Shown: positions 28,500-64,000 of the stretch, piece after piece
Numbering within the stretch: the stretch's first letter is position 1
Layout of the letters: each line of letters begins with the position of its first letter
Origin: Candidatus Methylomirabilis sp.
GTDB lineage: Bacteria; Oederibacteriota; PGYV01; DYJU01
Length of the DNA: 64,000 bases
Assembly (NCBI GenBank): GCA_020722985.1
Contig: DYJU01000001.1
Location: 4,943-68,942 of the forward strand
Direction of reading: 5' to 3'
The notes under the pieces: model-generated
Seen by the model: only the letters and a program-made list of their open reading frames with translations
What the model was told of the DNA's origin: nothing
Databases searched by the model: none
Program-made: the position numbers and the translations under genes

Positions 28500-28688
28500 T
28501 AAATATTTTAATTATTATTATTGTTTTATAATATGGGACAGTTTTTAAATAATTTTTTTATTTCTATTGCTAGTTTAAGGAACCTGACAAAATGATTTTA
28601 AAGTAATATATGAATAATATATACTATGTGTTTCGGTTTCGCTTAGAAAATTTATCTAAAAATATTACGAAAACTAAATAAAAAAAAT

Positions 28689-28716
28689 TTGACAAATAAT
28701 TAAAATATGCTATTAT
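28689..28716 (+). promoter_or_regulatory. Promoter (TTGACA, 16-bp spacer, TATTAT) whose -10 element ends 6 bp before the ATG at 28723, which suggests a leaderless mRNA
   Basis: The sequence is tttgacaaataattaaaatatgctattatttaaatATGaaa. No Shine-Dalgarno sequence is present. Confidence 0.35.
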
Positions 28717-28722
28717 TTAAAT

Positions 28723-37803: not shown

Positions 37804-39446
37804 ATATAAATAAATTTATTTTAAAGAAAGATTTTTTATTTTATATTGCATTAGGTTCATTATTGCTGGTTATGATTTTGTTTTCTATAGTAAATTCTTA
37901 CACAAAAAAGCAAATTGCAAAAAGCAATGAAATTATTGAAAAAAATTTATCGGATATATCAATCCTGTCTATCATATATTCGGATTTAAAAAGTTATACT
38001 GCTAAACTTATCTTAATCAGGAATTTAAAATGGAATAATTCATCAAAAATAAAATATTTAAGCGTTAAATTTAATAAACAAAAAGAAAATATCCAGAAGA
38101 TAAATAAAGAATATATAAAAAATTTATTAACTTCTTTTTTTGAAAATTTAAAAGAAATAGAACCGGATAAAACTTCAACTAAAATTTTAACAGAAAAGAT
38201 AAATAAAAATAATGGATTTTTAAAAAAAATTGATACTTCAATTCAACTGTTAAAAGCAGAAATAAATAAAAGCAGGGCAAATTTAAAACAAATTTCTGGT
38301 TCATCTGGAATTATTTTTATAGTTGTTGTTTTTATTATATTGATAATTTCCGGATGGGGGTTTTATTATAATTATAATGCAATAAATATAACAAAATCTT
38401 TTATTGAAAAATGGCAAATAGAAACTTCCATTATCGAAAATTTTGGAGAATTTTTTAGCATTAAAGAAAAATTAAATGAATTTTTATCAGAAGTAAAAAA
38501 AGCAAAATTAATTGAAAAAAATACAGAAGAAAAAATTAAATTAATTAAAGATGCATTAATAAATGTTATAACTTCTTTTTCTGAAATTTCACTTGCTGCT
38601 GATTCTGTATCAACTGCGTCTCAGGAACTTGCAAAAAAAATTACAGGGTATTCTGATAGTATAAAAAGCACAAAAGATTTGACAATCAATATGGCAAATG
38701 ATACAGAAAAGATAAGAACAGAAACAAATAAGGGGGCTGTTTATTCACAAAAAATGAATGAAACAGCAAAGGCAGATGAAGACACTATCGTTTCAATTAT
38801 AAAAGAAATTGAATCAATGCATGGGGTTATAAATGATTTAAATAACGTAATAGGTAATATGAATACTAAAGCAACAGAAATAAGTAAAGTGGCTTCTTTG
38901 ATAAAAGAAATAGCAGAGCAGACTAACCTTCTCGCTTTAAATGCTTCAATAGAAGCAGCAAGGGCAGGGGAGGCTGGCAGAGGTTTTGCTGTTGTTGCCG
39001 AAGAAATAAGACAACTTGCAGAATCTACAGGTAGTGCGTCCAAAAAGATTTCAGAAGAAGTAAGAGAAATAAATAAAATAACTAATCTTACAGTTGAAAA
39101 AATAAGTGGGGCAACCAAAAGAATAAATGCAAGTGTGAGTGTTGCAAATGATGTTGCAATTTCATTCCAGAAAATAAAAGATTCAATTGAAGAAACAATG
39201 CAGGTATCGGGCAATATTTATAATTTAACAAATGATGAAGTAAACAAAATACAGAGCATAGTTGGAATAATTAAGGATGTTGAAAGTATAATTGATGAAA
39301 TGGCTTCAAATATAGAAGGCATATCAGCTTCCATTGAGCAGGAAACTGCAAGCATTGAAAATTTGCGTTCGTCCTTAGAAGAGATTTATCAAAAATCCGA
39401 AAATATACGGCTTGATATAGAGAAAATCAGGAAATCTGAAAATTAA
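37800..39446 (+). CDS. Methyl-accepting chemotaxis protein
   Basis: It has two transmembrane helices and a highly conserved MCP signalling hairpin ([41 protein letters not shown]). Confidence 0.8.
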
Positions 39447-42400: not shown

Positions 42401-45400
42401 AACAGATGTTGATCCCGCACCGAGTTCAGGTACTGATATATACGGGACATCAGATAGAAAAATTATGCTCCAGTTAAATTATGCTAACTTAACGAGTTCA
42501 AGATGGGATGCATATAGATATTTAATTTCTTCCTATGGCGAAAATTTAAATAGTTATTCATATATTGAAATGTGGATTTATACAACACAGCCAATTGAAA
42601 TTGGCTTTGATCTCGGAGTAATCAGTGAAGATTCAAATGGGAATGGTATTTTAAATACTGAAGATAACTCTGGTGGTAGGCCAAATGGTATTTTAGAATC
42701 AGGCGAAGATATCGGGATAGATCAGTCAGGAAACGAATACTGGGGAGGAGGAAATGGTTTTTTAGATACTGAAGACATGAGTAATAATGGGATTTTGGAT
42801 ACATATGATGCATATTACCAGTATAGAAAAACACTTACAGAAACCGGCAGGTGGATAAATTTAAAAATTGATTTAAAAAAGATAGGAGAATTTGTAGGAT
42901 ATAATGTTACAACTGATCCAGCAAATAAGAATTTTCTTTCTCTTGTGAAACATTTAAGATTAGTTATAAGAGGCACTTCGGCAACGCCTGTAAATGGTTA
43001 TGTAAAAATATCATCAGTTGATATTACCGGGAATTCATGGGTTTTAAAAGTTATGCCAAATTCTTATGACAGGGTAGGTAATAAAATTGACTCTCCTGAT
43101 GTAAACAAATTTAATATGACAACTGTAAATCAATATACAGATTCTTCGTATATTCCGAATACCAGTTTTTTTGAATATCAGAGTGAAGAAGATAAAAAAT
43201 CAGAAAAAGGATTAAAAATAAATTATGAACTGTCAAATTATGATTTTAGAACAGATGGTAAACCTATTTATTTTGCAACCAAGGATTTAAGCAGGAGTAT
43301 AGGATATGATTATTCGGCATTTAAAAAATTAAGGTTTGATATTTTATATTCAAAAAAAGATGGTAGTTCTGGTTCCGGAAAAATATTATTTATACGCCTG
43401 GGTACCGGAACATCAGATGATAATAATTATTATCAGTATAACACTCAATTAGATGAAATACCTGTAGATAATGCATGGCATACCATTGAATTAAGACTGG
43501 ACGGTTCAGATAAAAAAAGAAGCGAACCTGTTGGTTCGCCCAATTTAAAACAGATAAATTATATTTCAATAGGTGTTATTAATCCTAATTCAATGTCTGT
43601 AAATGAAATTTTTTATATAAATAATATAAGGTTAACAGATCCGGACGAAAAGGTTGGCTCAGGTAAATATACCAATGCTACAATTAATTATTCTAATTTT
43701 GGAACTTTATCGCATTCTTTTGAAGAAAAAGAAAGTGATTTTATGACAATTGCTGATATAGGAAGTTCTATAGTAAAACAGCATTCCCGTAAAAATTCTA
43801 TAAATTTTAATTATAACCAGATTTCTTTTTTACCGGTAAATAACTCATATTCAAAAGAAGAATTATTTACCGAGGGTAAATATAGAAATGACCCTGAATA
43901 CACAAGTAATTATATAATACCTGATATCGTCAGAGAAAGTTTTACAAATTCAACAACATTCAGTTTAGTCCCAAACCTTACACTTATCAATAATCTAACA
44001 AAAGAAAACAGTAAAAACAGATATGTAAAAGTTTATACATATAAAGATTATGATTATGAAAAATTAAAAACTGTGCCTTCTGCCCGCTATATAGTTCCTG
44101 CTGAAATTGAATTACCAGCAGGTTTTAAGGTGCCGCTCGGAAATAACACCATAGAAGGCAATATTGCTTTTACAGATGAAAGATATAATTATATTCAGCC
44201 AGAACCAATTACCATCTGTGCTGACTGCTTTGATCAATGGAAATTGAGCAGGGAGCAAAGTTATAAATGGACAGGTAATTATAAAATTGACAGACTAACT
44301 TTATCCCCTGGTTATCAATATTCGCTTAATGAAATAAAAGGGAATGTTCAATCTATATATACTTATTATCAGGATAGGATAAGCCCTGATAAAAAATATG
44401 TGGATGATTATATACTTTTAAAACGAAGTATAATACCAGCGCTATCTTTGTCACTTGGTGAAATTTTGATTTTTAATCCACAGATTTCTTATCAAACAAA
44501 CTATACTATGGATTATTCACAGAGAAATCTATCAACAACAGGTAATTTTTCTTTTATGACAAAGGTAGAATTAAAAAAATTACTTGACTTTTTACCAGAC
44601 ATCAGCACATATAATATCAGTATAAACATTGTTGAAAACTATAATGATGCATATTATGCGGATTCAACGAAAGAATATGAAAAGTTAAGTTTTGAAACAA
44701 AGTGGTTTATTAATTCCTGGGAGAATATATTTAACATTAAAAAAATAGAGGAGTTAGAAAACATATCCTATAATGGTTCATTAAGATTAAATCATAATTT
44801 AAATTTTTCAGAAATAAAATTACTTGATAGAATTTCTATTTCGCCGGGCTTCGAATATGGTATTTATAGGAGTTCATATTCAAGGATTTTAAACACATTT
44901 ACAAATACAATAACTTTGAGTGTTTATAATATACAAATTTTTAATGTTAATATTCCAGGATTGGAAAAATTTATAAGAAATGAAACAATATCAGGTAAAT
45001 ATTCGTATAATAATACGAAAACCATAAACCCAACAAATAAAGAAGAGATAATAGCTGAAAATTCAAATCAACAGGTAAGCGCAACCTTAAATTTTAAAGA
45101 TTATGATGCAAATGAAAATCCGCTTACAGGCCAGATTGGCATTACATATAGCAATAAAAATAACAAAAACAAAGAGATTTTAACCTCGGAAAATATTTTT
45201 ACACCTACGTTTCAAATTAACTATCAGTTAAAATTTGGAGAACCATTTGTTTTTCCCTCATGGATGCCATGGATTGGTGGAAAAGCATTTAAGTTAGAAC
45301 ATATATTACAGTGGCAGAATTCAATGGCAGTTACAATAACAAGAGGCGATGAAAAAGGCGGAACTGGTGCAAATAAACAATCAAATGAAAAATATACAGC

Positions 45401-45545
45401 TTCAACAGAATTTTCTTATAATTTTCTTGAAAATTTTAATGGAATTTTCAGGCTGACCTATGAAAATAATGTGGATAGGATAAAAGATCCCAAGTATTCA
45501 TATAGTTCAATAGAAATTTCTCTTTCTTTCAGTGCATATTTTTAA
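39447..45545 (+). CDS. Giant 2032-aa outer-membrane-associated protein with four N-terminal Fn3 repeats and a long beta-rich region of about 1,650 aa ending in Phe. It may be a very large beta-barrel, possibly SprA/Sov-like.
   Basis: It has a signal peptide. The Fn3 repeats carry YNIYRS/YNIFRS ... YFYK/YYYKV motifs. The rest is rich in alternating Y, N, S and T beta-strand-like sequence. The C-terminus ...IEISLSFSAYF is an OMP-type aromatic end. Its ATG directly abuts the MCP stop codon (aatTAAATG). Confidence 0.45.
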   Translation: MPYLFFFIKILILIFNISLFAEEKISDNAANTQNVTIGNYVFKGPENLRAQVDGIQVKLIWDSVNLPGITYNIYRSTEEQGEYLKINKEEIKINEYIDNKKNSIMSLLSSIKYFYKVSAVDSGKEIGESNIVFAVPTGSLLPPDEVNVVPYPDKVLIKWVEPDSTGEYEIDGYNIFRSIDDKEEGIKLNKELIKGFEYEDKDIEQGVKYFYKLQSVDVRGNTSAFSKSYETMPFSLISEPLDVTAYAKSSESIKIAWSEPDIKGTYGIGYYNIFRSENPDSFPEKPINIKPVKTYYDEEGKVFYFDNIINSTEPPQPGKNYYYKVVPVDAEGHAGVASKVAGANIEILKLKKSGIISAEISEYGLPPDSNLKISGSKQIELSYKYVFETGKIPQRTRFDIKQPLKVKVEGNIGKKITVEVDHDDDRTQDEQRKISIKYQGDKEETIQEVNFGDITLSIPATRFVSYSQSLFGINAKAKFGDKFTLSAIAAQTKGITAKQTFKGNLREKEVNGKIGIFIMDTDFIKNTYYYITKENIQIKPGSVVVYVDNANAYDSNIYTRKSYPTGKFEFDFKYLGLDYTVDYKNNIIKFSFPIYDNYIIAIAYETMDGRKIGFDASGNFDFNEANLVSDTNGMTSEYAHLIQDGTMQNPKDISHKVLSYYYLGDTQIFDPKLDQDFEIRIYDMSDKEYYIPKPTDPDADKWYEIDTDFGLLRFKSYYPFVYPNNSPCDPATSNTRIGTEDDAYKTYPPVSSRYKIYLRYKYYVSSYKLDYPGVVYGSERVYLNGRLLKKDVDYYIIYETGEISFIDKNLIQSDSEIIITYEYFPFFQAFPSNLYGARAEYKLLDNLSLGSTFLYKSANTSSKTIPDARSTYQGLSTPYSMYILDGDIKFDLKKDQINKILDALPLIENSEVPVDFSFQAEIAHSNFNPNIFDKNNEHGVAMIDNIEGADNIISTSMDLNYWFPASRPQASDISTDRIQIRKSNITDVDPAPSSGTDIYGTSDRKIMLQLNYANLTSSRWDAYRYLISSYGENLNSYSYIEMWIYTTQPIEIGFDLGVISEDSNGNGILNTEDNSGGRPNGILESGEDIGIDQSGNEYWGGGNGFLDTEDMSNNGILDTYDAYYQYRKTLTETGRWINLKIDLKKIGEFVGYNVTTDPANKNFLSLVKHLRLVIRGTSATPVNGYVKISSVDITGNSWVLKVMPNSYDRVGNKIDSPDVNKFNMTTVNQYTDSSYIPNTSFFEYQSEEDKKSEKGLKINYELSNYDFRTDGKPIYFATKDLSRSIGYDYSAFKKLRFDILYSKKDGSSGSGKILFIRLGTGTSDDNNYYQYNTQLDEIPVDNAWHTIELRLDGSDKKRSEPVGSPNLKQINYISIGVINPNSMSVNEIFYINNIRLTDPDEKVGSGKYTNATINYSNFGTLSHSFEEKESDFMTIADIGSSIVKQHSRKNSINFNYNQISFLPVNNSYSKEELFTEGKYRNDPEYTSNYIIPDIVRESFTNSTTFSLVPNLTLINNLTKENSKNRYVKVYTYKDYDYEKLKTVPSARYIVPAEIELPAGFKVPLGNNTIEGNIAFTDERYNYIQPEPITICADCFDQWKLSREQSYKWTGNYKIDRLTLSPGYQYSLNEIKGNVQSIYTYYQDRISPDKKYVDDYILLKRSIIPALSLSLGEILIFNPQISYQTNYTMDYSQRNLSTTGNFSFMTKVELKKLLDFLPDISTYNISINIVENYNDAYYADSTKEYEKLSFETKWFINSWENIFNIKKIEELENISYNGSLRLNHNLNFSEIKLLDRISISPGFEYGIYRSSYSRILNTFTNTITLSVYNIQIFNVNIPGLEKFIRNETISGKYSYNNTKTINPTNKEEIIAENSNQQVSATLNFKDYDANENPLTGQIGITYSNKNNKNKEILTSENIFTPTFQINYQLKFGEPFVFPSWMPWIGGKAFKLEHILQWQNSMAVTITRGDEKGGTGANKQSNEKYTASTEFSYNFLENFNGIFRLTYENNVDRIKDPKYSYSSIEISLSFSAYF

Positions 45546-45556
45546 AAGGAGGTATT

Positions 45557-48500
45557 ATGAGTTTAATAAAAAAAATTTTTTATATAATAATAATTACTTC
45601 AATGCCTGTTTTTTTATCTGCTGAGATTTTACCGCCTTCTTCAGTAAATCCTGTAAGATGGGATGATGGAGTTGAAATTATATGGCAGGATGCTGTTTCA
45701 ACAACGAATGTTTCTTATTATATAATTTACAGATCGACCTTTGAAAATTTAACCGAGACATATTATGATGTTACATTTTCAACAGGCACAAACGTAACGC
45801 GTTATGTTGATAGTTTAATAAATACCTATGATGTTTTTTATTATGCTATCCAGACAGTTGATTCAGCAGGCAATACCAGTGTTTTATCATCTGTAAAACC
45901 TGCTTTCCCTTATAACCTGACAATTACAGCTTTTAACTCAAAAAATTTTTTAAAATGGAATAACAAATTTTTAAGTTCGTGTAGTTTTAATATTTATAGT
46001 AGTACAGATGCACAGGGGAATTTCACATCAATTGCAAGCACAATAACAGCAGGAGAATATATAGATACTGAAGTTATAAATGGATTTACATATTATTATA
46101 AAATAGGTGTTATTTACAATTCGCAGGAAGCGCCTTTATCATCAACAAAATCTGCTATACCTTTTGTAAATCCATTTTCGCCTGCAAATTTATCGTATTC
46201 TGTAAATATTGATACTTCGGGAAATACAAATGTAATTATCACATGGTCATCTGAAAATACAAAAGGAACCTATCCTGTATCAGGATTTAAAATTTTCAGG
46301 TCATTAATTTATGATGATGAAAATGATTTTTCTGCTTTTTCAACGTCAACGGGTTATGTGGATACTTTACCTGCACCCGGATATAAATATTATTATAAGA
46401 TAATGACAGAAGATATAAAAGGTAATACTTCTTTGCCTTCCTATTTTTCGGTATATATAAATGGTCAGCCATCAGCGCCTTTAAATCTCACAATTACCTC
46501 TTCTGGTATTGAATCTGTAAATCTTATGTGGGATACAAATTTAAGTTATGAAAATGTAACTGCTTATGTTGTTTACAGGGCAACTTATGAAGAAATTGGT
46601 TTGACATCTTTTAATTTTTATATTGATAATATTACTTTTTCACCCGGGGAAACAATAAATTATCATGTGCGTGCTTTAAATGCATCTGGATTAAGTGATT
46701 TTTCAAATGCTGTTACAGTAACAGTGGTTCCTAAAAAACCTTCAAATTTTAATGTTTATCAGGATGAACCCGACAAAGTCAATCTAAACTGGGATGCAAA
46801 TGGTACAATTGAAAATATAAAGATATATAATATTTATAGAGTTGTGCCGCCTGCAACAATTGATATTAACAATCCATATTATGTTTTGACAACAGAAACA
46901 GTAGCAGGAACTATTGAGTGGCAGGATTCAGCAGTAAATACAGGCACATTTTATAGTTATGCTGTGGCAGGTGTTACATTAAATGCTTATTCACAGTATG
47001 TAACAGGAATTGCAACATCTGCGCTTTATATAACACCTGTTTCAATACCTGCAATTCCTGTTAATTTAACGATCACAGCTTTTAATTCCTATGTTTTACT
47101 TTCCTGGGTTGAAAATGATGAAAAAGAAAAAATAGCAGGATATAATATATTTAGAAGTACTGATGATATTTTTTATGAGAATATTACAAAAGTAGTAAAT
47201 AACTATTATTATGATACAGGACTTAATACATATACTGTTTATTATTATAAAACTAATGCTGAAAATTATCTGGGCTGGTCATCAACCTTAACTGCTTATG
47301 TTTTTGCTATACCTTATGCGTTAAATTTTATAGATAATCCAAGAAACGTAACCTTATCATCAAAAGGAGATGGAAATTTATTTTTACAATGGTCGGCATC
47401 GCCGCCTGAGGATTCTGTTACAAAATACAATATTTACAGGTCAACAGTTTCAGGAATTTATGAAGCAACCCCATATACTTATACACAGGTTACATATTAT
47501 ACTGATACATCTGTAACAGCAGGAACACAATACTTTTATAAAATAACAGCTTTTGGGGTAACAGAAAGTGCAGCATCAGATGAAGTGAACGGAATACCAT
47601 ATTTAAAACCATATCCGCCGACAAATATAGAAATTGTTAATTTGCATAATAAGGTTTTATTAAAATGGACTGCTCCTGCTTTAAAAGGCACATATCAGAG
47701 TATAGATCAGTATAATATTTATAAAAGCACATCTTCCAGTAATTTTACTCTTATAGAATCAAAAACCACTGAAAATTATTTTATTGATAGTTCTGTAAAT
47801 ACAGGATATTCTTATTATTATAAAATAAAAACAGTTGATGATAATAACGAAGAAGATACAGATACCACAAATTATTATATAAATCTCATTGATACATCTT
47901 TTCCGCCGGATACTCTTATTGCATTTGCAGGAGAAAACTGGGTTACCTTGAACTGGAAAAGGGTTACTTTAACTGCTGATTCATATAATATTTATAAAAG
48001 CACTACATCAGGTAATTATGGAGAACCTTACATTTATTCTTTGGGCGTAAATCAATACAAGGAATTTACGGATTATAATGTCCAGAGGGGAATTACATAT
48101 TATTATACTATAACTGCAATTAATTCAGCAGGTGAAGGTCCTAAATCAAATGAAGTTGAAATTACACCATATCTTACAGCAAGATTACCTGAAAATCCTT
48201 TAATAAGATATACATTAGAAAACAAGAAAAACATCCATCTTTACTGGGATAAGGCAATAGATGGCGATTATCCGGTTGTGGGATATAATATTTTGAGGAG
48301 TAAAGATGGTGGAGCAAATTATGAAACTTTAGGTTTTGTAACAGCAACAGCTACTCCTGATTTTTTAGATGATAAGACAGAGTGGGGTAATATTTATTAT
48401 TATATGATAAGAACTGTTGACTCTAAATCAAATCAGGATGCTATATATCCTGTTTTAAAGGTTGAATTGCCGGTGCCTGAAGATAAAATAAGAGTTTTTG

Positions 48501-48787
48501 CCAATCTTTTTGATTTGAGCAAAAATGAAAAATTAAAATTAAAATATCAGGCAGTAAAAAGTGGAAAAATAAGGATAAAAATTTATACATTAAGTGGTAA
48601 TTTTGTAAAAACTTTATTAGAAGAAGAGGTACCGGAAGGAACTTCTTCAGAAAATCCTTATGAAAGTCATGAATTTTTCTGGGATGGAAAGAATTCCAAT
48701 GGAGAAAAAGTTGCATCCGGAGTTTACATTATAATACTTGAAACAAAAGATAAAAAAGTTATGGCAAAGGTGGCAGTGGTGAAGTAA
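45557..48787 (+). CDS. Secreted 1076-aa protein with about ten Fn3-like repeats and a T9SS-type, FlgD-Ig-like C-terminal sorting domain
   Basis: It has a signal peptide. The repeats show YNIYRS/FRST ... YYYKI motifs. The C-terminus reads KIRIKIYTLSGNFVKTLLEE...FFWDGKNSNGEKVASGVYIIILE. Confidence 0.65.
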   Translation: MSLIKKIFYIIIITSMPVFLSAEILPPSSVNPVRWDDGVEIIWQDAVSTTNVSYYIIYRSTFENLTETYYDVTFSTGTNVTRYVDSLINTYDVFYYAIQTVDSAGNTSVLSSVKPAFPYNLTITAFNSKNFLKWNNKFLSSCSFNIYSSTDAQGNFTSIASTITAGEYIDTEVINGFTYYYKIGVIYNSQEAPLSSTKSAIPFVNPFSPANLSYSVNIDTSGNTNVIITWSSENTKGTYPVSGFKIFRSLIYDDENDFSAFSTSTGYVDTLPAPGYKYYYKIMTEDIKGNTSLPSYFSVYINGQPSAPLNLTITSSGIESVNLMWDTNLSYENVTAYVVYRATYEEIGLTSFNFYIDNITFSPGETINYHVRALNASGLSDFSNAVTVTVVPKKPSNFNVYQDEPDKVNLNWDANGTIENIKIYNIYRVVPPATIDINNPYYVLTTETVAGTIEWQDSAVNTGTFYSYAVAGVTLNAYSQYVTGIATSALYITPVSIPAIPVNLTITAFNSYVLLSWVENDEKEKIAGYNIFRSTDDIFYENITKVVNNYYYDTGLNTYTVYYYKTNAENYLGWSSTLTAYVFAIPYALNFIDNPRNVTLSSKGDGNLFLQWSASPPEDSVTKYNIYRSTVSGIYEATPYTYTQVTYYTDTSVTAGTQYFYKITAFGVTESAASDEVNGIPYLKPYPPTNIEIVNLHNKVLLKWTAPALKGTYQSIDQYNIYKSTSSSNFTLIESKTTENYFIDSSVNTGYSYYYKIKTVDDNNEEDTDTTNYYINLIDTSFPPDTLIAFAGENWVTLNWKRVTLTADSYNIYKSTTSGNYGEPYIYSLGVNQYKEFTDYNVQRGITYYYTITAINSAGEGPKSNEVEITPYLTARLPENPLIRYTLENKKNIHLYWDKAIDGDYPVVGYNILRSKDGGANYETLGFVTATATPDFLDDKTEWGNIYYYMIRTVDSKSNQDAIYPVLKVELPVPEDKIRVFANLFDLSKNEKLKLKYQAVKSGKIRIKIYTLSGNFVKTLLEEEVPEGTSSENPYESHEFFWDGKNSNGEKVASGVYIIILETKDKKVMAKVAVVK

Positions 48788-54992: not shown

Positions 54993-55105
54993 TATTTTAA
55001 AAAAATAATTTAGACTTTTTTGTTTTGTTTGCATTTTATAAAGTGTAACAGAATTTTAAAGGAAATGGGTAAAGTTAAAAACTGCCTTTATATTTCAGAA
55101 TAATA

Positions 55106-55428
55106 GTAATAGTTCAGACACCAGAAGTCCACCTGTAAAAGTGTGATTACTAGAAAGAAAATACATGGCTTTGGCATTCTTAGGAAGCCGAAATAAAAGT
55201 TAAGAAGGGAAAATAAGGGCATATGAGGCTTAAGGAAGCAATATGGCAGTTAAAAGCCAGAAGATGATAATGGAAGAAGGCATTTTGTGATAAAAGCAAG
55301 ATTGCTTTGTCAGGCGAGAGTTAAGGTGGAATAGAAGGCAGTGGTTATCATTCGCCTGACTTCGCAATGACAAAATGAAAAAATTTATATATGGACAAAA
55401 TTTATTCTGCCAGTGGCTAAAATATTAC
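55106..55428 (+). mobile_element. MITE-like TIR-bounded repeat, copy 9
   Basis: It starts GTAATAGTTCAGACACCAGAAGT and ends CTGCCAGTGGCTAAAATATTAC. Confidence 0.65.
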
Positions 55429-55439
55429 AAAAAGAAGTC

Positions 55440-55462
55440 CCTTCTCCCCAGAGGGGAGAAGG
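55440..55462 (+). terminator. GC-rich perfect hairpin (10-bp stem, 3-nt loop) followed by a G/T-rich tract. It may be a terminator or RNA stability element.
   Basis: The hairpin ccttctcccc-aga-ggggagaagg sits immediately 3' of repeat copy 9. Confidence 0.3.
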
Positions 55463-55503
55463 ATAGGATGAGGGGGTTTTGTTGTTGCGGTTAAAATTTT
55501 TTC

Positions 55504-55531
55504 TTGACAGGGAGTTGAATTGGTGTAAAAT
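55504..55531 (+). promoter_or_regulatory. Promoter-like TTGACA, 16-bp spacer, TAAAAT upstream of the giant NHL-repeat gene
   Basis: The sequence is ttgacagggagttgaattggtgtaaaat. It lies about 230 bp upstream of the proposed start. Confidence 0.3.
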
Positions 55532-55757
55532 AAATTTAATAAAAAAAAGAGATATAACTTACTTTGTGGCTTCTTACCTGTAGGGCAAGAAAAATCTCTT
55601 TTCCCTATGGAGGGGTTTTGAATTGGAAATAAAAAATTTATTTTTAAAATTTATAGGGACATACAGGAATAATTTATACCCATGGAACAACGTTTTATAT
55701 ACTTTTAAAAATATAATACTGTATGAAATAGACTCAGTTTTAAAATGGGTTAAAAAT

Positions 55758-58700
55758 TTGAAAAAGGTATTTTTTATAATAACCTACCTGAGTCTTTATT
55801 TCGTTTTTATTTTAACTCCTTCTTCTGTTCTGGCTGATTCTAATGATAATATATATATTCCCTGTGATGCTGATTTTACAAAAAAACTTGATTTAATGGT
55901 GAATTGTTCGCTTCATGGAAAAGACGAAAGAAGGTATTATTTAAAGATTATAAATCGCAATAACGAGGCAATAGATATAAGGGATATAAATCTTGCAATC
56001 AAATTATGGCTGTATGAACCTGAACTCTGGTGTATAACATTAACCGGTCAGAATGGTGAAGTTTATGATGGTAATGGCAACCGCATAAATGCAATGCAGA
56101 TAGAATCAAATAATTTTTGTTCTTTTGTTTCAAAAGAAATATTTATAGAAGACAAAAATCACAAATCAAATCAGGAAGGATCATCTTTTATTATTTATAA
56201 ATCAGGAGTTGCCACCATACCTGCAGGTGGCTGGGTTCAGGGATTTGAAATATTCATAACATCAAAGTGTAATTTTCTAAAACCAGCTGAGAACAGGCAG
56301 AAAATTTATTATGCATATCTTCCAGATAATATGAAAAACAAGGAACAGACAGTAATTCCTGGAGGGATGTATGAAGCCAGTGGGAGAATTATTCTGGCAT
56401 CAAACAATGGTTATGTTAAATGGCGGGATGATGATAAAGAAACGTGTTATGGGATTTTTGATGATTATTCTGGTATTCCATCAAACCAGGGAAAAAGCAA
56501 TGGAAATATAATGGGTCCATATTATGACGACCATCATTTTGCTTTGTATTCAGGAAGTTCACTTATAGGAGAAATAAAAAAGTATGGCAAAATAGATCCT
56601 GAAACAGGGTTGCCTCCTGGTGCTGCATTATGTATGCCTGCTATAACGCATACCCCGGCGTTTACAATAACAGCAACTTGCACAATTACACCAACTCTTA
56701 CTGCAACGCTGACAGAAAATGTGTTTAACTGTCCTCCGAAAAAACATAGATGGCATCCATGCGGACTTGTTTGCGAAGCAGTTACTAGGAATTGTGAAGA
56801 AGATGACGACGACGATGACTGCGATGATGACGGTTGCAGGGATGATGACTGTTTTTCTGCGGGCTCAGACTGTAAAAAGTGCGGGGATGGATGTGAAAAA
56901 AGTAAATGCAAACATAAGTGTGGGAAACATGGTTCTTACATAAAATTGACATGGCACGCAGCCTATAAAGGGATATTCAGAAATCCAGATTATTACGAGG
57001 TTTATAGAGCGTTATCAGAAGCAGGACCATTTAATTTAGTTTTTATTGTTCCGGGAAAATCAGGAAGCATTCATCATCAGATTGTAACTGTTTATGATAA
57101 GCCTGGTGACGGGTACTGGTGTTATAAGGTAAGGGCTGTAAAGAAGGAATGTAAAAAAGGGTGTAAAAAATGTAAAAAGAAATACAGTAATTTTACAAAT
57201 ATATGTTGTGCAGCAACAGGAGTGGTAGATTCACCAACAATAACACCAACTATATCCTTTACTGCAACCAATATTTTAAGTCCAACTTTTACAATGACAC
57301 AGACTTCTTCAGACACAGAGACACTTACTGCAACGCCTACTGTTACAATTACAGTTACATACACAATAACGCGGACAATGACGGAAACAATAACTCCGAC
57401 AATCACTTATACAATAACTCCGACAATTACGGAGACCGTAACTCCTACTGTAACACAAACAGTAACCCGAACAGTTACACAAACCATAACGAAGACTGTA
57501 ACGTCAACAATTACACCTACGATATCGCCTACCATAACAGAAAGCATAACACAGACCATAACAGCAACAATAACGCAAACAGTGACGCCTACAATAACTG
57601 AAACAATAACACCAACAGTAACGACAACGATAACAGAGACAATAACGCGGACAATGACGGAAACAATAACTCCGACAATTACTTATACAATAACTCCGAC
57701 AATCACGGAGACCGTAACGCCTACTGTAACACAAACAGCAACCCGAACAGTTACACAAACCATAACGAAGACTGTAACGTCAACAATTACACCTACGATA
57801 TCGCCTACCATAACAGAAAGCATAACACAGACCATAACAGCAACAATAACGCAAACAGTGACGCCTACAATAACAGAAAGCGTGACGCCTACCATAACTG
57901 AAACAATAACACCAACAGTAACGCAAACAATGACAGAGACAGTAACAGAGACAGTAACTCAGACAATAACATCATCAATAACTCAAACAATTACACCAAC
58001 TATTACAGTGACTTTTACGCCGGTTAGTGAAATTTGTCTTAAATTTGCAGAAAAATGGGGAGTTGACCTTTCACTATTGTTTGGGGCAATTGCATATTAT
58101 ACGGGAGAACAGGGATATATTGTGCCTATTGGAGCAGGATACGGGCAGGATGGGAATATATACGTATCAATAACCGGATATATACCTGTAACAGGTGTTT
58201 ATGAAATATTAATAAACGAGTATCCCCGGCTGGCGCCGCTCATAGAAAGCATGGGGCTGGCAGATATTTACATAGATCAGGTTGTCGTGCTTAATAAGGA
58301 TGGAAAAGTTATAAAGCAATGGGGTAAACATGGAAGTGAACCGGGTGAGTTTAATATTCCAGGAACAATTGCAATATCTCCAGATGGGTTAGTATATGTA
58401 TGGGATTTTGGTAACAATCGTATTCAGATATTTAATACGGATGGAGATTATATAAGAGAAATACCCGGGAGTGGTTCGGGCCCTGGTTCAACACCTCAAA
58501 TTCAGGATTATTTTCCAATTGGAATAGCATTTGATAATTTGGGGTATATTTATATAGCAGATGGATATAGCACAGTTATGAAATTTACACCAGAAGGTGA
58601 TCCTGTTAATGGGCAGTGGCCAGTCGGTAGTTTTGGGAGTGAGACTGAACAATTTATGTATCCAGGTAGTCTTGCTATAGGTGAGGATAATAAAATTTTT

Positions 58701-61700
58701 GTGCTTGATATTGGAAATATGCGCGTTCAGGTACTTGATACGGATGGTAATTTTCTCGGAAACTGGGGAAATTGCGGGAGCGGGGATGAATGCTTACAAT
58801 CGCCTTTTTCAATTGCAATTGACGGTTCGGGGTTCCTTTATATTGTGGATGGGACACGGGTTAAGGTTTTTGACCAGACAGGCAACCTTAAAGAACTGGC
58901 AGAAAATGAGAATATGGTTTATCCTGTATCAGTAGCGATAGATGAGGAAAGGAACGTTTATGTAACGCAGGCTTCCGGCTGGACGCTTTTAAAATATATC
59001 CCGTGTGAGACATTGCCAACGCCTACATCATCGGCAATACCAACTTATTTACCAACGATATGTTATGAACTGGGAAATAAGTGGGGGTATGAAATTGAAA
59101 ATTTACCGTTTGGTGGCATAGCAGTGGATACTGATGGTAAAATATATCTGGCAGAAACAGCAATAGGTCAGGTCACCATTCTTGATCAGGCAGGAAAACA
59201 AATCGGTTATTTCAGAACATCTCCAACAGTTGTGAGCGAGGATTTTCCATTTGGAGATCCCAGTGCTGTAGGTATAAGCAGTTTAGACAAAATTTATGTT
59301 ACAGATATACTCGGCAGTAATGTTCAGGTATTTACAAAGGAGGGGATTTTCGTTGATTTATGGACTGGAGATGGAACAGAAGCAGGGAAATTTAAGCAAC
59401 CTTCCTGGGTTGCTGTTGATGATATAAGAGGGCTGGTATATATCACAGATTTTCAAAATTCACGTATTCAGGTATTTGATTTAAATGGCGCACCTGCAGG
59501 GAAAATTGGTGAGATTGGTGTTTTCAATGGACAATTTTTAGGACCTATAGGAATAACTTTGGGTAAAGATGAAAACATTTTTGTAAGCGATATTATTTCT
59601 GGAAATATCACAAAATTAAATAATAATTATGAGTTTATTAAAAGGTGGGGTGGTTTTGGAACCACATCGGGATTATTTGCAGGAGCAGGTGGAATTGCTA
59701 CAGGTCATGATGGCAGAATATTTGTTTTAGATATTTTAAGGAAGAGAATCCAGGTTTTTGATCCGGATGGAAATCTTATACAGGTGCTTAATGGTCAATT
59801 AATGGGAGGAGAAGATTTTAACTATCCGTCAGGAATAGCAGTTGATTCAGAAGGCAGTATTTATGTATCTGAGATGGGGTTGCAGAGGTTACAAAAGTTT
59901 GTTATATGTGGGACGGCGCCGACACCAACCTCAACACCGGTTTCAACACCAGGAATAACAGTATGCCTTACTCCTGGAATGAAACTTGGTGGTGTGGATG
60001 CAAAGGGGTTTATAAATCCTGCTTATTTTGACATTGATACCAAAAATAAAAAAATTATAGTTATGACAGAACTTACTATAGGACCTGGCTTAAAAATTGC
60101 AATATTTACATTAGATGGTGTATATGTAAGTAGTTTTGATATACCGGGGGAAAGGTTTGATTATGCCTCCTTAGAAATAACCTCTGATGGTAGAATATTT
60201 TTATTAAACAAGAAAAATAAACAAATACTTGTATATAACCAGGAAGGGATGCTTTTAAATACCTTTGGTGAAGAAGGATATGAAAAAGAAAAATTAAAAA
60301 TTCCTTCGGATATGGCGGTTAATTCAACCACGGTGTATGTTGCGGATGAGACTTTTAAAATAAATAAATATAACCTGTCAGGAGAGTTTATAAAAGAGGA
60401 AGGAAGAGGAACAGGCGCGTTTGAAGGGCAGGTTGGAATAGTTAAAAAGATATATATAAATGAAGATGGAAGTATGATAACTTTTGATCAGAATAATAAA
60501 AAAATTTCAAGATTTGACCCTTCAGGCAGTTTTGTAACAAGGTTTGGTGGTGCTGATGTATTTAATTTAATAATAGATATAGCATTTGACTCTTATGGAA
60601 GTATATGGGTGGTTGATAATATGGGGGTTGAACAGGGTAATATAAAAATATTTGATGGGAATGGGTATATTATAAAAACTTTAACAGGAAATGATTTTGG
60701 GGTTGAAAATTTTAATACAATAAATGAGATAAAATTTGATAGCAAAGGGAATTTATATACTTTACAAACATCGGAGAATCAGATAAGAAAATTTGATTTA
60801 TGTTATCTTATTACTCCAACACCTACGCCAGATGTTATTCAGGGTATTGAACATTGTGAGGTATTTATTAAACAATGGGGGAAACAGGGAAATGAGCCTG
60901 GTTTTTTAAATTACCCATCAGGCGTAGCAATAGACAGTGATGGAGATTTATTTGTAAGTGAAAAATACGGAAAGCGGATAGATGTATTCAGTTCCAGTGG
61001 AGATTATATAAAATCATTTGGCAGTGAATTGCTTGAAGTTCCATCGGATCTGGTAATAGATAGTTACAATAGATTTCTGGTTCTTGATAGTTCCCTTGGT
61101 TGTATTTATGTATTTGATTCAACCGGGAATTGTCTGACATCCATTGGATTTTTTGATGATGAATATAGACATTTAAAAAATCCTTCTTCGCTGACAATAG
61201 ATGGTGATGATAATGTTTATGTGGTAGATACAGGAAATCACAGAATACAGAAATATCACATAGATGCCCTGAATAATACAACGTTTGTAAAACAGATAAG
61301 TATAGGCCCGGGAGCATTTAAAAACATGCTGGATACGCCTGTTACAATATGTGTAAATAATAATTATATATACGTTGTTGAAGAGACAAATAAAAGGATA
61401 AGTGTGTTTGATCTTGATGGAAATTTTATAAGAATATGGGAACCATATATACCTGGTGAAGGTTATTTAGATGTTCATAAGATTAGAGACATTCAATATT
61501 TTGAAAATAATTATATGTATATATCTGACTGGGAAAAAGACAGGATAATTGTATTTGATGAAAAGGGTAGATTCATACATTCTTTTGGAAAAACCGGGGA
61601 GCAGATTGGTGAATTTATGGAACCATATATTGCTTTAAATGGAGATGGACAGATATATGTGGTTGAACATACGGGAAACAGGATACAGAAGTTTCAGCTT

Positions 61701-64000
61701 TGCGAAAATCTGATGCCGATGCCAGTAGGCACGCCTATGCCAGATTTGATAATAGCAGGGCTTAACGTAGTAGAGGACGGTGTGACAAGGACATTCACGG
61801 CACGGGTAAAAAATATAGTAATATCCACGTTTGGTATAGCATCGCCTCAGGTGGCGGTTTCTATTTATGAAAATGATCCCAGAACAGAAAACGGAATTCT
61901 GCTTGGCACAGGATTTACGGATGGAGCTCTCTTAAAGGGAGAGGTAAAGGAAGTCAGTATTCCTGTTTCTGTGACATTGACTGTAAGAGGTCCAATATGG
62001 GCAGTTGCAGACGATACAGGCAATATTACGGGCTTGTTTCAGGAAATAAATGAGGAAAATAATTTTTATAATTCAGAGATATTTATAGAGGCGCCTGAGT
62101 TCACACCAACACCAGGTATAAAGAACGAAGCGCCTGTAGTTAATCTGGGAAAAGACAGGGTGCTTACCTGTATGGACTCTAAATTGCCTGTGGTGACGCC
62201 CATACCTGTATTTGAATTAACCGAGATAAGCACAAAATTGAATAACGCAACAGGGATAGACCACAACCAGAGGCTTAATAAGATAATATTATCAGTGAAT
62301 TATTCAAATGGACTGCCATGGAACTTTGAGGTTGTAAACCCTGATGGATCCCATGAACAGTTCAGCGATATAAAAGGATTCACAGATGAGGTGCCGATTG
62401 CGATAGCAAAAGGTAGTTGTGACGGGTTTTCCATAGGAGGATTTGAGATAGGGACGCTGTTCGTAGGAACGGGAAATCCAGGGGAAATAGCGAAGATTTC
62501 GTCTGATGGTCTGGTAGCGGAGGTGCCATGGGTAAAAATTCCAGGTGAGACAGGCTTATTCAGGGGTGATTTATACATAGACGATACCGGCATATTCGGA
62601 GGAGATTTAATAGCGGTCACCACTGCAGGAGGGGCATACAGGATTAATTCAAACAAAGAAATCACAATGCTTGCGAAGTTTAATTTTAAACTGGGAGACG
62701 GCTTGATAGTGGTGCCGGATAATGAAGAAAAATACGGTCCGTGGTCCGGGAAAATACTGGTAGGTGCAGAAGATACGGGACAACTTATAACAATAGATGC
62801 TGAAGGCAATACACAAGCTTACCCGGGATACTCGCCTGAAGACATAAAACTGGTCCCACCGAACGAGAATTTTTACGCCTGCGCTTATTCAGACGCGGTT
62901 TTATACGGCGCACCAGCAGGCATGTTCGCTAATATGGTAGGCGATATTATAATAGCGCAGGAATTTCCGGGTATACTGTGGCATGTAAAATGGAACGGCG
63001 AGGAATTCGTCAAAAAACAACTCGGTAAGACATTAGGTCAATTTGAACAGATAGCGTTTTCAACAGAAGGTATCGTTGAGATACAGCCTATTTATTCAAT
63101 GAGAATAGAGCCAGAGGTGAGCGATGACGGACTGCCGAAACCGTCTACTTTAACCGCACAGTGGGTCCTGGTGGATGGTCCTGGAAGCGTTGATTTTTCC
63201 GCACCCAATAGCATAAACACTGATGTGGTCTTTGAAAAACCAGGGATATATAGATTAAAACTTTCTGTTTCTGATGGTATGCTGAGCGAGTCTGACGAAA
63301 TAAGTATTACTGTCCCTGATTACGGAGTTCCGACTTTAACACCCACAATAACGCCGACCGTAAACCCTTCCTTTAAAAGCGATCTGACGATACTTGATAT
63401 AAATACATCGGAAATACATAGAGATATAAAAACCCTTGAAGTTACAGGCAGGATTACTGTAACCATAGCGAATATAGGTGATAGGTCTCCAGGAATTGAA
63501 ACCGAACTTATAATTTTTGAAGATATCAATTTCAATCAGTCCTATGATTATGGGATTGATACAGTGCTTGGAAGTGCAGCAATACCAGCCAGTTTTAAGC
63601 CAGGATCAGACGCAGATTTCACATTTGAACTTCATTATACTGAACTTTTCAGGGAAAACATTATTTATGCTGTTGTTGATGGCGGGAGTATTGTTGCAGA
63701 ATATAATGAAAATAATAATATATTAAATACAGGCGACAGGTGCGGAAATATGTCCTTGCCTCAACCTGATACGCTTTCTTTAAAATGGGCATGGACATCT
63801 TCAACAAAAGAACCTGATTTTATTAATGTAAGAACAAGTCCGCTTGTGTGTGACATTAACAATGATAACGTTCCTGAAATAATAGTTAATACAGGAAATA
63901 TAAATGGCGGAGAAGATGGTATTTTAAGAATTCTTAATGGAATTTCAGGAGTGGAGGTGTTATCAGTTACGGTAAATGCCTACAGGATAAACAGTATGGT
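55758..64000 (+). CDS. Giant secreted multi-domain protein of more than 2,740 aa that continues past the window end. It has multiple NHL-repeat six-bladed beta-propeller domains separated by TPT-rich linkers, a Cys/Asp-rich segment, a PKD-like domain and FG-GAP-like repeats.
   Basis: I read the frame by hand and found it open from 55584 to 64000 with no stop. The ORF track omits it because it has no in-window stop. The proposed start is the TTG at 55758, followed by the signal peptide KKVFFIITYLSLYFVFILTPSSVLA. The TTG at 55623 sits downstream of a GGAGG and is an alternative start. NHL signatures recur, for example EFNIPGTIAISPDGLVYVWDFGNNRIQIF and FMYPGSLAIGEDNKIFVLDIGNMRVQVLD, with ...RIQ(V/K)F repeated. 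The PKD-like block is QWVLVDGPGSVDFSAPNSINTDVVFEKPGIYRLKLSVSDG. The FG-GAP-like block is VCDINNDNVPEIIVNTG. Confidence 0.65.
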   Translation, partial: MKKVFFIITYLSLYFVFILTPSSVLADSNDNIYIPCDADFTKKLDLMVNCSLHGKDERRYYLKIINRNNEAIDIRDINLAIKLWLYEPELWCITLTGQNGEVYDGNGNRINAMQIESNNFCSFVSKEIFIEDKNHKSNQEGSSFIIYKSGVATIPAGGWVQGFEIFITSKCNFLKPAENRQKIYYAYLPDNMKNKEQTVIPGGMYEASGRIILASNNGYVKWRDDDKETCYGIFDDYSGIPSNQGKSNGNIMGPYYDDHHFALYSGSSLIGEIKKYGKIDPETGLPPGAALCMPAITHTPAFTITATCTITPTLTATLTENVFNCPPKKHRWHPCGLVCEAVTRNCEEDDDDDDCDDDGCRDDDCFSAGSDCKKCGDGCEKSKCKHKCGKHGSYIKLTWHAAYKGIFRNPDYYEVYRALSEAGPFNLVFIVPGKSGSIHHQIVTVYDKPGDGYWCYKVRAVKKECKKGCKKCKKKYSNFTNICCAATGVVDSPTITPTISFTATNILSPTFTMTQTSSDTETLTATPTVTITVTYTITRTMTETITPTITYTITPTITETVTPTVTQTVTRTVTQTITKTVTSTITPTISPTITESITQTITATITQTVTPTITETITPTVTTTITETITRTMTETITPTITYTITPTITETVTPTVTQTATRTVTQTITKTVTSTITPTISPTITESITQTITATITQTVTPTITESVTPTITETITPTVTQTMTETVTETVTQTITSSITQTITPTITVTFTPVSEICLKFAEKWGVDLSLLFGAIAYYTGEQGYIVPIGAGYGQDGNIYVSITGYIPVTGVYEILINEYPRLAPLIESMGLADIYIDQVVVLNKDGKVIKQWGKHGSEPGEFNIPGTIAISPDGLVYVWDFGNNRIQIFNTDGDYIREIPGSGSGPGSTPQIQDYFPIGIAFDNLGYIYIADGYSTVMKFTPEGDPVNGQWPVGSFGSETEQFMYPGSLAIGEDNKIFVLDIGNMRVQVLDTDGNFLGNWGNCGSGDECLQSPFSIAIDGSGFLYIVDGTRVKVFDQTGNLKELAENENMVYPVSVAIDEERNVYVTQASGWTLLKYIPCETLPTPTSSAIPTYLPTICYELGNKWGYEIENLPFGGIAVDTDGKIYLAETAIGQVTILDQAGKQIGYFRTSPTVVSEDFPFGDPSAVGISSLDKIYVTDILGSNVQVFTKEGIFVDLWTGDGTEAGKFKQPSWVAVDDIRGLVYITDFQNSRIQVFDLNGAPAGKIGEIGVFNGQFLGPIGITLGKDENIFVSDIISGNITKLNNNYEFIKRWGGFGTTSGLFAGAGGIATGHDGRIFVLDILRKRIQVFDPDGNLIQVLNGQLMGGEDFNYPSGIAVDSEGSIYVSEMGLQRLQKFVICGTAPTPTSTPVSTPGITVCLTPGMKLGGVDAKGFINPAYFDIDTKNKKIIVMTELTIGPGLKIAIFTLDGVYVSSFDIPGERFDYASLEITSDGRIFLLNKKNKQILVYNQEGMLLNTFGEEGYEKEKLKIPSDMAVNSTTVYVADETFKINKYNLSGEFIKEEGRGTGAFEGQVGIVKKIYINEDGSMITFDQNNKKISRFDPSGSFVTRFGGADVFNLIIDIAFDSYGSIWVVDNMGVEQGNIKIFDGNGYIIKTLTGNDFGVENFNTINEIKFDSKGNLYTLQTSENQIRKFDLCYLITPTPTPDVIQGIEHCEVFIKQWGKQGNEPGFLNYPSGVAIDSDGDLFVSEKYGKRIDVFSSSGDYIKSFGSELLEVPSDLVIDSYNRFLVLDSSLGCIYVFDSTGNCLTSIGFFDDEYRHLKNPSSLTIDGDDNVYVVDTGNHRIQKYHIDALNNTTFVKQISIGPGAFKNMLDTPVTICVNNNYIYVVEETNKRISVFDLDGNFIRIWEPYIPGEGYLDVHKIRDIQYFENNYMYISDWEKDRIIVFDEKGRFIHSFGKTGEQIGEFMEPYIALNGDGQIYVVEHTGNRIQKFQLCENLMPMPVGTPMPDLIIAGLNVVEDGVTRTFTARVKNIVISTFGIASPQVAVSIYENDPRTENGILLGTGFTDGALLKGEVKEVSIPVSVTLTVRGPIWAVADDTGNITGLFQEINEENNFYNSEIFIEAPEFTPTPGIKNEAPVVNLGKDRVLTCMDSKLPVVTPIPVFELTEISTKLNNATGIDHNQRLNKIILSVNYSNGLPWNFEVVNPDGSHEQFSDIKGFTDEVPIAIAKGSCDGFSIGGFEIGTLFVGTGNPGEIAKISSDGLVAEVPWVKIPGETGLFRGDLYIDDTGIFGGDLIAVTTAGGAYRINSNKEITMLAKFNFKLGDGLIVVPDNEEKYGPWSGKILVGAEDTGQLITIDAEGNTQAYPGYSPEDIKLVPPNENFYACAYSDAVLYGAPAGMFANMVGDIIIAQEFPGILWHVKWNGEEFVKKQLGKTLGQFEQIAFSTEGIVEIQPIYSMRIEPEVSDDGLPKPSTLTAQWVLVDGPGSVDFSAPNSINTDVVFEKPGIYRLKLSVSDGMLSESDEISITVPDYGVPTLTPTITPTVNPSFKSDLTILDINTSEIHRDIKTLEVTGRITVTIANIGDRSPGIETELIIFEDINFNQSYDYGIDTVLGSAAIPASFKPGSDADFTFELHYTELFRENIIYAVVDGGSIVAEYNENNNILNTGDRCGNMSLPQPDTLSLKWAWTSSTKEPDFINVRTSPLVCDINNDNVPEIIVNTGNINGGEDGILRILNGISGVEVLSVTVNAYRINSM
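57363..57941 (+). repeat. Near-identical tandem duplication, about 276 bp then about 303 bp, inside the Thr-rich linker of the giant NHL gene
   Basis: The unit acaataacgcggacaatgacggaaacaataactccgacaat... at 57363 recurs at 57639 with only a few substitutions and a 27-bp indel. It encodes TITRTMTETITPTITYTITPTITETVTPTVTQT... Confidence 0.7.

Follow-up and report, generated by a model that had tools for sequence, protein, structure and literature searches.

Toxins built around a shell of RHS/YD repeats, for which the Pfam models are PF05593 and PF25023, are the closest described systems to the gene analyzed here. The polymorphic toxins to which they belong were defined as a class by Zhang et al. 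(2012, Biol Direct 7:18, as that work is reported in PMC13018210), and examples are RhsA of Pseudomonas protegens, which is delivered by a type VI secretion system (T6SS; PMC8765631), and Rhs of Photorhabdus (PMC8636562). The teneurin-like proteins (TLPs), described in 2026, are Sec-exported, surface-displayed RHS-shell toxins with a downstream immunity gene, and are rare but found in several phyla; their defining feature is a superfold in which FN-plug, NHL, and YD shell are contiguous and a single NHL propeller is docked on the shell, and a TIP domain lies N-terminal to the FN-plug in 96% of them (PMC13018210). The subject of this work is a giant open reading frame (ORF) that runs off the right end of a 64,000-nucleotide stretch of Candidatus Methylomirabilis sp. 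DNA (assembly GCA_020722985.1, contig DYJU01000001.1, forward-strand positions 4,943 to 68,942), which is referred to below as the window and supplies all coordinates. The ORF is a genuine gene, and what it encodes within the window is probably the N-terminal part, ~2,750 residues long, of a Sec-exported RHS/YD polymorphic toxin in fused form; if similar to its closest relative, the whole protein would have ~5,000 residues.

Frame +3 is open from position 55584 to the window end at 64000, a run of 2,806 codons, and in all frames together it is the only open stretch of more than 500 codons beyond 52 kb. The ORF is ~29% GC and the remainder of the window 25-34%; stops are dense in noncoding frames because the DNA is this AT-rich, chance therefore cannot account for a frame of such length, and the ORF is thus real. 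An initial annotation, made from the sequence alone, had read this frame by hand as an unlisted ORF of more than 2,740 codons, and a six-frame check confirmed that no stop had been missed. The program-made ORF list contains only short antisense or out-of-frame entries over 55.5-64 kb (56534-56911, 57122-57406, 57203-57601, 60988-61317, and 62300-62809) because the ORF lister omits frames that run off the source. Residues are numbered throughout from a TTG codon at 55758, from which 2,747 codons are visible before the window end cuts the protein in mid-propeller. The order of its parts, all on the + strand, is as follows.

55758-55835, + strand: TTG start codon and predicted Sec-type signal peptide, MKKVFFIITYLSLYFVFILTPSSVLA followed by DSNDN (residues 1-26; read from the translation, with cleavage predicted before DSNDN)
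55836-56654, + strand: N-terminal module with a predicted CBM3-like fold, the N-module (residues 27-300; no Pfam or NCBIfam model)
56715-56930, + strand: Cys/Asp-rich segment (residues 320-391; 12 Cys between 325 and 388; Asp runs CEEDDDDDDCDDDGCRDDDC)
56931-57212, + strand: fn3-like stretch (residues 392-485; pattern L.W...Y.VYR...Y.V.AV, assigned by inspection)
57213-58010, + strand: Thr-rich linker (residues 486-751; 266 amino acids, 121 of them (45%) Thr; TxT period of 12 nt)
58011-59024, + strand: NHL propeller 1 (NHL 68.6 bits, E = 2.6e-19; TEN_NHL E = 1.8e-14; flanked by Cys760 and Cys1083)
59058-59927, + strand: NHL propeller 2 (NHL 81.2 bits, E = 2.7e-23; DUF5128 E = 4.3e-17; flanked by Cys1102 and Cys1384)
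59955-60827, + strand: NHL propeller 3, divergent (NHL 22.9 bits, E = 8e-5, marginal; flanked by Cys1403 and Cys1682)
60849-61727, + strand: NHL propeller 4 (NHL 83.2 bits, E = 6.2e-24; flanked by Cys1700 and Cys1982)
61743-62102, + strand: CARDB-like Ig domain, CARDB-1 (residues 1996-2110; E = 0.0067, 17 bits against a cut-off of 22.7, below threshold)
62130-63077, + strand: domain X, modeled as a six-bladed beta-propeller (residues 2125-2441, a ~326-residue domain; no Pfam or NCBIfam model)
63078-63317, + strand: PKD-like Ig domain (residues 2441-2517; K319L-like PKD, E = 1.7e-5, 25.2 bits against 27, just under threshold)
63378-63725, + strand: CARDB Ig domain, CARDB-2 (residues 2541-2657; E = 8.5e-7, 29.6 bits against 22.7, above threshold)
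63771-64000, + strand: start of an FG-GAP/VCBS-type propeller (LKWAWT...SPLVCDINNDNVPEII...; residues 2672-2747, the first blade, cut by the window end)

In database searches with the full query, the best relatives were three proteins, P0001 (4,748 amino acids, named "RHS repeat-associated protein" by the Joint Genome Institute, JGI), P0002 (3,751), and P0003 (4,082). Each is arranged in the order N-module, Thr-rich linker, NHL array, CARDB, FG-GAP propeller, second CARDB, RHS repeats, and YD-shell end, with malectin domains between the second CARDB and the RHS repeats in P0001 and P0003; none were detected in P0002. BLAST aligned the giant ORF to each of the three in three collinear blocks. 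Against P0001, these pair the N-module (residues 34-306 with P0001 12-262, 44.5% identity), the linker with the propellers (558-1890 with 237-1585, 38%), and CARDB with the start of the FG-GAP propeller (2531-2746 with 1909-2122, 32%). The window stops opposite residue 2122 of 4,748 in P0001, ~45% of the way through that protein, and therefore ~2,600 residues are missing from view if the architecture is conserved. The RHS repeats of P0001 begin ~1,200 residues past the equivalent of the window end.

The relatives themselves have the marks of toxins. Over the last 700 amino acids, their RHS cores are 29-55% identical, whereas the tips 3' of the motif R.[YW][DEK]P..GRF...DPxG have no detectable similarity to one another; the DPxG cleavage motif and a variable tip were found in P0001, P0002, P0003, P0006, and P0044. 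The tip of P0002 is Pfam Ntox44 (E = 5.8e-15) and that of P0006 is close to a WHH nuclease. Small ORFs without a Pfam match lie 3' of the relatives' genes in four loci (L001, 24251-25042; L003, 5650-6078; L008, 16578-17009; and L007, 11950-12228), and these candidate immunity genes start 4 nt past the stop codon or overlap it, except in L007, where the distance is 49 nt. A small ORF directly 3' of the toxin gene is the arrangement of the immunity gene in RHS and teneurin-like toxins (PMC13018210). Judged by their sequences, P0001-P0003 and their kin are polymorphic toxins in the classical sense.

The association with RHS cores holds for individual modules. The N-module is tied to an RHS core in all five informative loci, being fused to it in P0001, P0002, and P0003 and directly upstream of it in L003 and L007; the remaining N-module homologs are fragments at contig ends. 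In L003 (2712-6078), a 267-amino-acid N-module ORF overlaps a 723-amino-acid RHS ORF, and in L007 (557-12228), a 2,004-amino-acid protein carrying the N-module, NHL, and malectin is separated by a 90-nt gap from a 1,746-amino-acid RHS-shell ORF, which is followed by a 92-amino-acid ORF. These two split loci could be decayed or frameshifted copies, or they could be true two-gene versions. The junction between CARDB and FG-GAP leads to the same partner: all four proteins found to contain it (P0001, P0002, P0003, and the protein of L006 from an Acidobacteriota metagenome-assembled genome, MAG) have an RHS core downstream.

Relative to described Rhs/YD toxins, the closest full-length relatives share the RHS shell, DPxG autocleavage, hypervariable tips (one of them Ntox44), and small downstream ORFs. 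The giant ORF is collinear with the N-terminal halves of those proteins, and its own RHS part, which we infer, would lie beyond the window. It departs from the T6SS-delivered Rhs toxins in lacking a PAAR/VgrG-type N-terminus, in place of which it has a Sec signal peptide and ~2,700 residues of CBM3-like, propeller, and Ig-like modules, and no T6SS genes occur in the 64 kb. Diderm envelope functions are encoded in the window (AcrB, an OmpA-family protein, an O-antigen ligase, and a heptosyltransferase), and Sec-dependent export would fit a diderm context without T6SS genes, as it does for Gram-negative teneurin-like RHS toxins (PMC13018210). Like TLPs and teneurins (PMC13018210; PMC5851990), the giant ORF combines variable N-terminal adhesion domains with NHL propellers, but it and its relatives contain at least four such propellers and not one. 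Membership in the TLPs was considered and rejected on domain order, because CARDB, FG-GAP, and malectin separate the NHL array (476-1900) from the RHS repeats (~3326 on) in P0001. WapA of Bacillus subtilis is another point of comparison, reportedly characterized by Koskiniemi and coworkers in PNAS in 2013 as a Sec-dependent, wall-associated RHS toxin. It consists of a signal peptide, an N-terminal surface-association region, an RHS core, and a variable toxin, is accompanied by an immunity gene, and acts in contact-dependent competition without a T6SS; it differs from the protein considered here in coming from a monoderm, in having cell-wall-binding repeats instead of CBM3-like, NHL, and FG-GAP modules, and in being far smaller. 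An RHS/YD class with interchangeable N-terminal trafficking or adhesion regions is thus already known, and what is unusual here is how elaborate the front end is.

The N-module belongs to a small family, and in an alignment (A2) with eight other copies it is 43-51% identical to seven of them; the eighth, the first copy in P0003, is divergent, with 28% identity. Among the motifs that do not vary are IPxGG and DDY...GP..DD.HF. An AlphaFold2 model had a mean predicted local distance difference test (pLDDT) score of 70, with a core above 85 and one disordered or low-confidence insertion at module residues ~152-209. When this model was searched against the PDB with Foldseek, the top 24 matches were all CBM3, the best being 1nbc (E = 1.1e-6; TM-score 0.65 on the target). 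The module had no match to Pfam CBM_3 (PF00942) at E <= 1, and its profile found nothing among PDB sequences; one marginal profile match (E = 0.0036) was to P0011, whose precomputed Pfam list includes PF00942. As modeled, the N-module is CBM3-like in fold, but it was not filed as a member of CBM3 because of the missing Pfam match. Its predicted fold is the same as that of the CBM3 modules of cellulosomal scaffoldins and GH9 cellulases (1nbc, 4jo5, 1g43, 2wob), and in cellulosomal proteins, as here, a Thr/Pro-rich linker follows the module. In contrast to those modules, with which it is ~10% identical, the N-module has an insertion of 50-60 residues and a conserved Cys pair, and is joined to toxins and not to glycoside hydrolases. 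The N-module family appears so far only with RHS toxins.

Downstream of the N-module, the Cys/Asp-rich motif of the initial annotation was found as the 12 Cys and Asp runs listed above; the segment has no Pfam or PDB match and is missing from P0001-P0003. Residues 392-485 likewise had no significant Pfam or PDB sequence match, and the fn3 label remains an assignment by eye for that reason. Within the Thr-rich linker are two 276-bp tandem units that are 97% identical.

The NHL array extends over residues 752-1990. Four NHL regions had been proposed in the initial annotation, and all four are real near the positions claimed; each scores above the Pfam NHL (PF01436) cut-off of 20 bits, and the divergent third propeller falls within the collinear alignment to P0001. 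Over the whole protein, NHL scored 174.7 bits and TEN_NHL E = 1e-18. The short Cys-containing junctions quoted between propellers are likewise present: ICGTAPTPTSTP at 59901, DLCYLITPTPTP at 60795, and QLCENLMPMP at 61695. Every NHL propeller has one Cys just 5' of its first blade and one just 3' of its last, as do those of the relatives, and a disulfide between the two probably clasps each propeller; such clasps would fit an extracytoplasmic protein. The array also matched the NCBIfam equivalog ScyF (360.9 bits against a cut-off of 350), but this assignment was rejected, as the score is a sum over six stretches drawn from several NHL propellers.

Of the two CARDB domains, CARDB-2 aligns to the copy that precedes the FG-GAP propeller in P0001-P0003, whereas CARDB-1 is closest to the copy 3' of that propeller (34-38% identity; P0001 2491-2635 and P0003 1652-1778). 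The PKD-like and FG-GAP-like parts proposed in the initial annotation fared less simply. The K319L-like PKD match falls just below threshold. Only ~76 residues of the FG-GAP segment are visible and its Pfam match is weak (E = 0.12, 12.8 bits against 22.1), but it aligns to the start of the relatives' FG-GAP propeller, being 32-35% identical to the same junction in P0001-P0003, and the matching slice of P0001 is FG-GAP_3 at E = 1.5e-15.

Domain X has no sequence relative in Pfam, NCBIfam, or the PDB. Its model (pLDDT 93) is a generic six-bladed beta-propeller resembling those of Vgb lyase, strictosidine synthase, NHL, and YWTD proteins, with TM-scores of ~0.55 at 10-15% identity. A sensitive search of 1.84 billion cluster representatives, the clusters being drawn at 50% identity, returned 889 relatives with E values up to 1e-3, of which 242 reached 1e-30 or better. 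Among the best 150 matches, 30 of the 35 proteins of at least 2,000 amino acids contain an RHS core, as scored with a profile from five RHS cores, and domain X together with PKD is found as a cassette in the RHS giants P0043 and P0044; short domain X proteins also carry TSP3, Big_9, PEP-CTERM, PKD, VWA, or a type IX secretion system (T9SS) tail. Domain X, a large propeller family (at least 889 clusters) that has no model as yet, may be preferentially recruited into RHS toxins.

The front end of the giant ORF is, on this evidence, a mosaic. Compared with P0001-P0003, it has two insertions: the Cys/Asp-rich and fn3-like segments after the N-module, and CARDB-1, domain X, and PKD after NHL propeller 4. 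At third codon positions, GC ranges from 0.12 to 0.23 among 22 other genes in the window and is 0.28 in the giant ORF as a whole and 0.21 in NHL propeller 3, but 0.34-0.42 in the CARDB-1/domain X/PKD cassette, and the rise, to about twice the genome level, coincides exactly with the cassette at 61743-63317. Because third-position GC is high there and the cassette is missing from the closest relatives, its composition suggests that it came by recombination or lateral acquisition from a donor of higher GC.

One near-identical public contig exists, the 4-kb L002 (JGI 3300000227, TB_AS07_7DRAFT_10011772), which is from the same population and matches window positions 55045-59385. It differs from the ORF by two substitutions outside the repeats and, in the upstream intergenic region, by a single-base indel. 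In addition, L002 has one 276-bp Thr-repeat unit fewer (window 57363-57946), and an insertion of 16 bp at 56864 shifts its reading frame, so that ORFs of 422 and 761 amino acids are called; the frame of the window is intact. The differences could be an assembly artefact or a real allelic or disrupted variant.

Two start codons compete for the giant ORF. TTG 55758, the start taken in the initial annotation, lies directly 5' of the signal peptide, which reads as a textbook Sec leader, but it lacks a Shine-Dalgarno sequence. A second TTG, at 55623, is preceded by one, is used as the start in a public gene call (P0038), and gives 2,792 codons to the window end, with 45 extra residues before the hydrophobic segment; GGAGG- or AGGA-type sites likewise precede most genes of the window. 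Comparable N-terminal hydrophobic leaders were seen in the relatives P0002, P0003, P0039, and P0041, the last labeled 'Candidatus Goldiibacteriota bacterium'. Should 55623 be the start and the leader stay uncleaved, the N-terminus would anchor the protein in the inner membrane. The features upstream are as follows.

55504-55531, + strand: promoter-like TTGACA-16 nt-TAAAAT, 11 of 12 matches, 92 nt 5' of TTG 55623 (a match to consensus, which is not a statement of function)
55609-55625, + strand: GGAGG Shine-Dalgarno sequence (55609-55613) and alternative start codon TTG 55623, at a spacing of 9 nt

The 630-nt intergenic region 5' of the giant ORF (54993-55622) is free of ORFs and gave no match to Rfam. 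It has a perfect GC-rich hairpin of 11 bp (CCCTTCTCCCC-AGA-GGGGAGAAGGG) at 55439-55463 and an imperfect inverted repeat at 55301-55368.

Several observations weigh against an RHS toxin. The profile built from five RHS cores found nothing in any ORF of the window, and the C-terminus of the giant ORF was not recovered from any collection searched, so that the toxin part is read wholly from homology of architecture. An exact 62-mer from the window end had no match in genome or metagenome contig collections, a protein-based scan of metagenomes with the last 307 residues found no relative, and a homolog search with the last 207 residues and an exact look-up of the neighboring epimerase protein each returned nothing; the alignment of the CARDB/FG-GAP junction, searched against genomes, found only the contig of P0003 itself and one Acidobacteriota MAG. 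No RHS core was detected in five of the 35 giant domain X proteins, and the precomputed Pfam lists of the NHL-rich matches P0007, P0010, and P0012 include no RHS domain. The arrangement of the giant ORF differs from that of P0001-P0003, which shows that domains have been shuffled; its C-terminus, too, could be different for this reason. There is also no evident export route across the outer membrane. Finally, L003 and L007 encode the RHS shell in an ORF of its own, apart from the front end, and a fused protein is for that reason not guaranteed. Set against the consistent company that the distinctive modules keep, these points leave it likely, to our reading, and slightly more so than the fused form by itself, that an RHS toxin is encoded here, whether fused to the visible part or directly adjacent.

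The foremost alternative is a stand-alone surface adhesin or surface-layer-type multi-propeller protein without a toxin, which would end in a C-terminal sorting or anchoring domain and serve in attachment to cells or polymers. All visible domains are of adhesion or binding type, which would suit such a protein, as would the PEP-CTERM, T9SS tail, TSP3, Big_9, and VWA of the short domain X proteins, the NHL-rich and giant domain X proteins that lack RHS, and the two large fn3 proteins encoded just upstream, one of them with a FlgD_ig-like C-terminus. However, the closest relatives over the N-module, over the propeller array, and over the CARDB/FG-GAP junction all lead into RHS cores, and the window end lies less than halfway through P0001; we consider an adhesin unlikely. 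The initial annotation was right about an exported multi-propeller NHL structure with a Cys/Asp-rich motif and PKD-like and FG-GAP-like parts, but the function it envisaged, in a surface layer, in adhesion, or as an enzyme, is not the best reading, because every informative relative of the distinctive modules either is an RHS/YD toxin or adjoins one. To that annotation can be added the predicted CBM3-like fold of the N-module, the two CARDB domains, the fifth propeller, and the link to RHS/YD proteins.

A split system is also conceivable, in which the giant ORF ends past the window and a separate downstream gene supplies the RHS shell and toxin, the visible protein being an accessory adhesin or carrier. 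L003 and L007 are arranged in just this way, but both are contigs of short-read metagenomes and could be frameshifted or decayed copies, and the three closest relatives are single fused ORFs; such a division is quite improbable. That the giant ORF belongs instead to a carbohydrate-active or other enzyme complex, as a CBM3 scaffold or enzyme or with NHL/lactonase-type propellers catalyzing reactions on polysaccharides or small molecules, is scarcely credible, for despite the CBM3-like fold with its cellulosome-like Thr-rich linker and weak propeller matches to SGL, lactonase, and Vgb-lyase families, no catalytic family (glycoside hydrolase, lyase, or other) was detected with Pfam or NCBIfam in the 2,747 visible residues, the lactonase-type matches reflect the generic six-bladed fold and are below or near threshold, and the N-module has no Pfam CBM_3 sequence match.

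If the giant ORF is indeed the front half of an RHS toxin, its visible part would be a display and targeting end, concerned with delivery and adhesion. After Sec export, and a presumed passage across the outer membrane, the CBM3-like module would probably bind a glycan; this could belong to the envelope of the producer, in which case the module would be an anchor, or it could belong to a target or substrate. The Cys/Asp-rich segment would form a knot, followed by an extended Thr-rich stalk, and a rigid chain of four NHL propellers, CARDB, the fifth propeller, PKD, CARDB, and FG-GAP would project the distal RHS capsule while offering surfaces for receptor binding. Beyond the window, one would expect the remainder of the FG-GAP propeller, possibly lectin-type domains, and then the RHS shell around a variable C-terminal toxin. 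The toxin would be freed by aspartyl autoprotease cleavage at a PxxxxDPxG motif and would act on neighboring cells, the producer being protected by a small immunity gene directly downstream; the expected role is competition with, or killing of, neighboring cells.

A limited literature search found no description of a protein in which a CBM3-like module and a Thr stalk are combined with four or more NHL propellers and one of FG-GAP type. It is possible, and we suggest it only tentatively, that the giant ORF and P0001-P0004 form an architectural class of their own, not described before: RHS toxins of uncultivated diderms that are exported by Sec and do not depend on a T6SS, characterized by the CBM3-like module, the Thr stalk, and a disulfide-clasped NHL chain with FG-GAP, in which recognition of a glycan on a competitor's envelope or on a shared polysaccharide would direct delivery.

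Other features of the window were noted in passing. Two large genes at 39447-48787, directly downstream of a gene for a methyl-accepting chemotaxis protein (37800-39446), probably encode additional surface proteins: the first, of 2,032 amino acids, has a weak fn3 match alone, and the second, of 1,076 amino acids, has fn3 and the FlgD_ig-like C-terminus. Neither was matched by the N-module, domain X, or RHS profiles. DUF11-repeat proteins at 22-1710 (562 amino acids) and 20812-23436 (874 amino acids) are candidate cell-surface proteins. Almost every real-looking ORF of at least 120 amino acids across the window (1-64000) is on the + strand, and 31 of the 32 bins of 2 kb have a positive GC skew, all but 56001-58000, within the giant ORF; orientation and skew are consistent with a single replichore and leading-strand bias. 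A 1.9-kb region at 26863-28722 contains no ORF of at least 120 amino acids, but has two small ORFs (27668-27832 and 27919-28044) that, by eye, resemble what is left of a HicB/HicA-type antitoxin-toxin pair. Scanning the window for Rfam families and tRNAs returned nothing.

Annotation routinely loses giant genes that extend past the edge of a contig, and the ORF track gave no sign of the one described here. The finding does not overturn current ideas; modular N-terminal regions are the norm for the RHS toxin class. It should be useful to family curators and to those who study polymorphic toxins, for whom it offers a CBM3-like module family, a six-bladed propeller family that has no model, and a mosaic front end. 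If the giant ORF is read as the front half of such a toxin, expectations for the downstream sequence change: it should encode a shell, a toxin, and an immunity gene, a concrete prediction that can be tested in this uncultivated diderm lineage with its AT-rich DNA.

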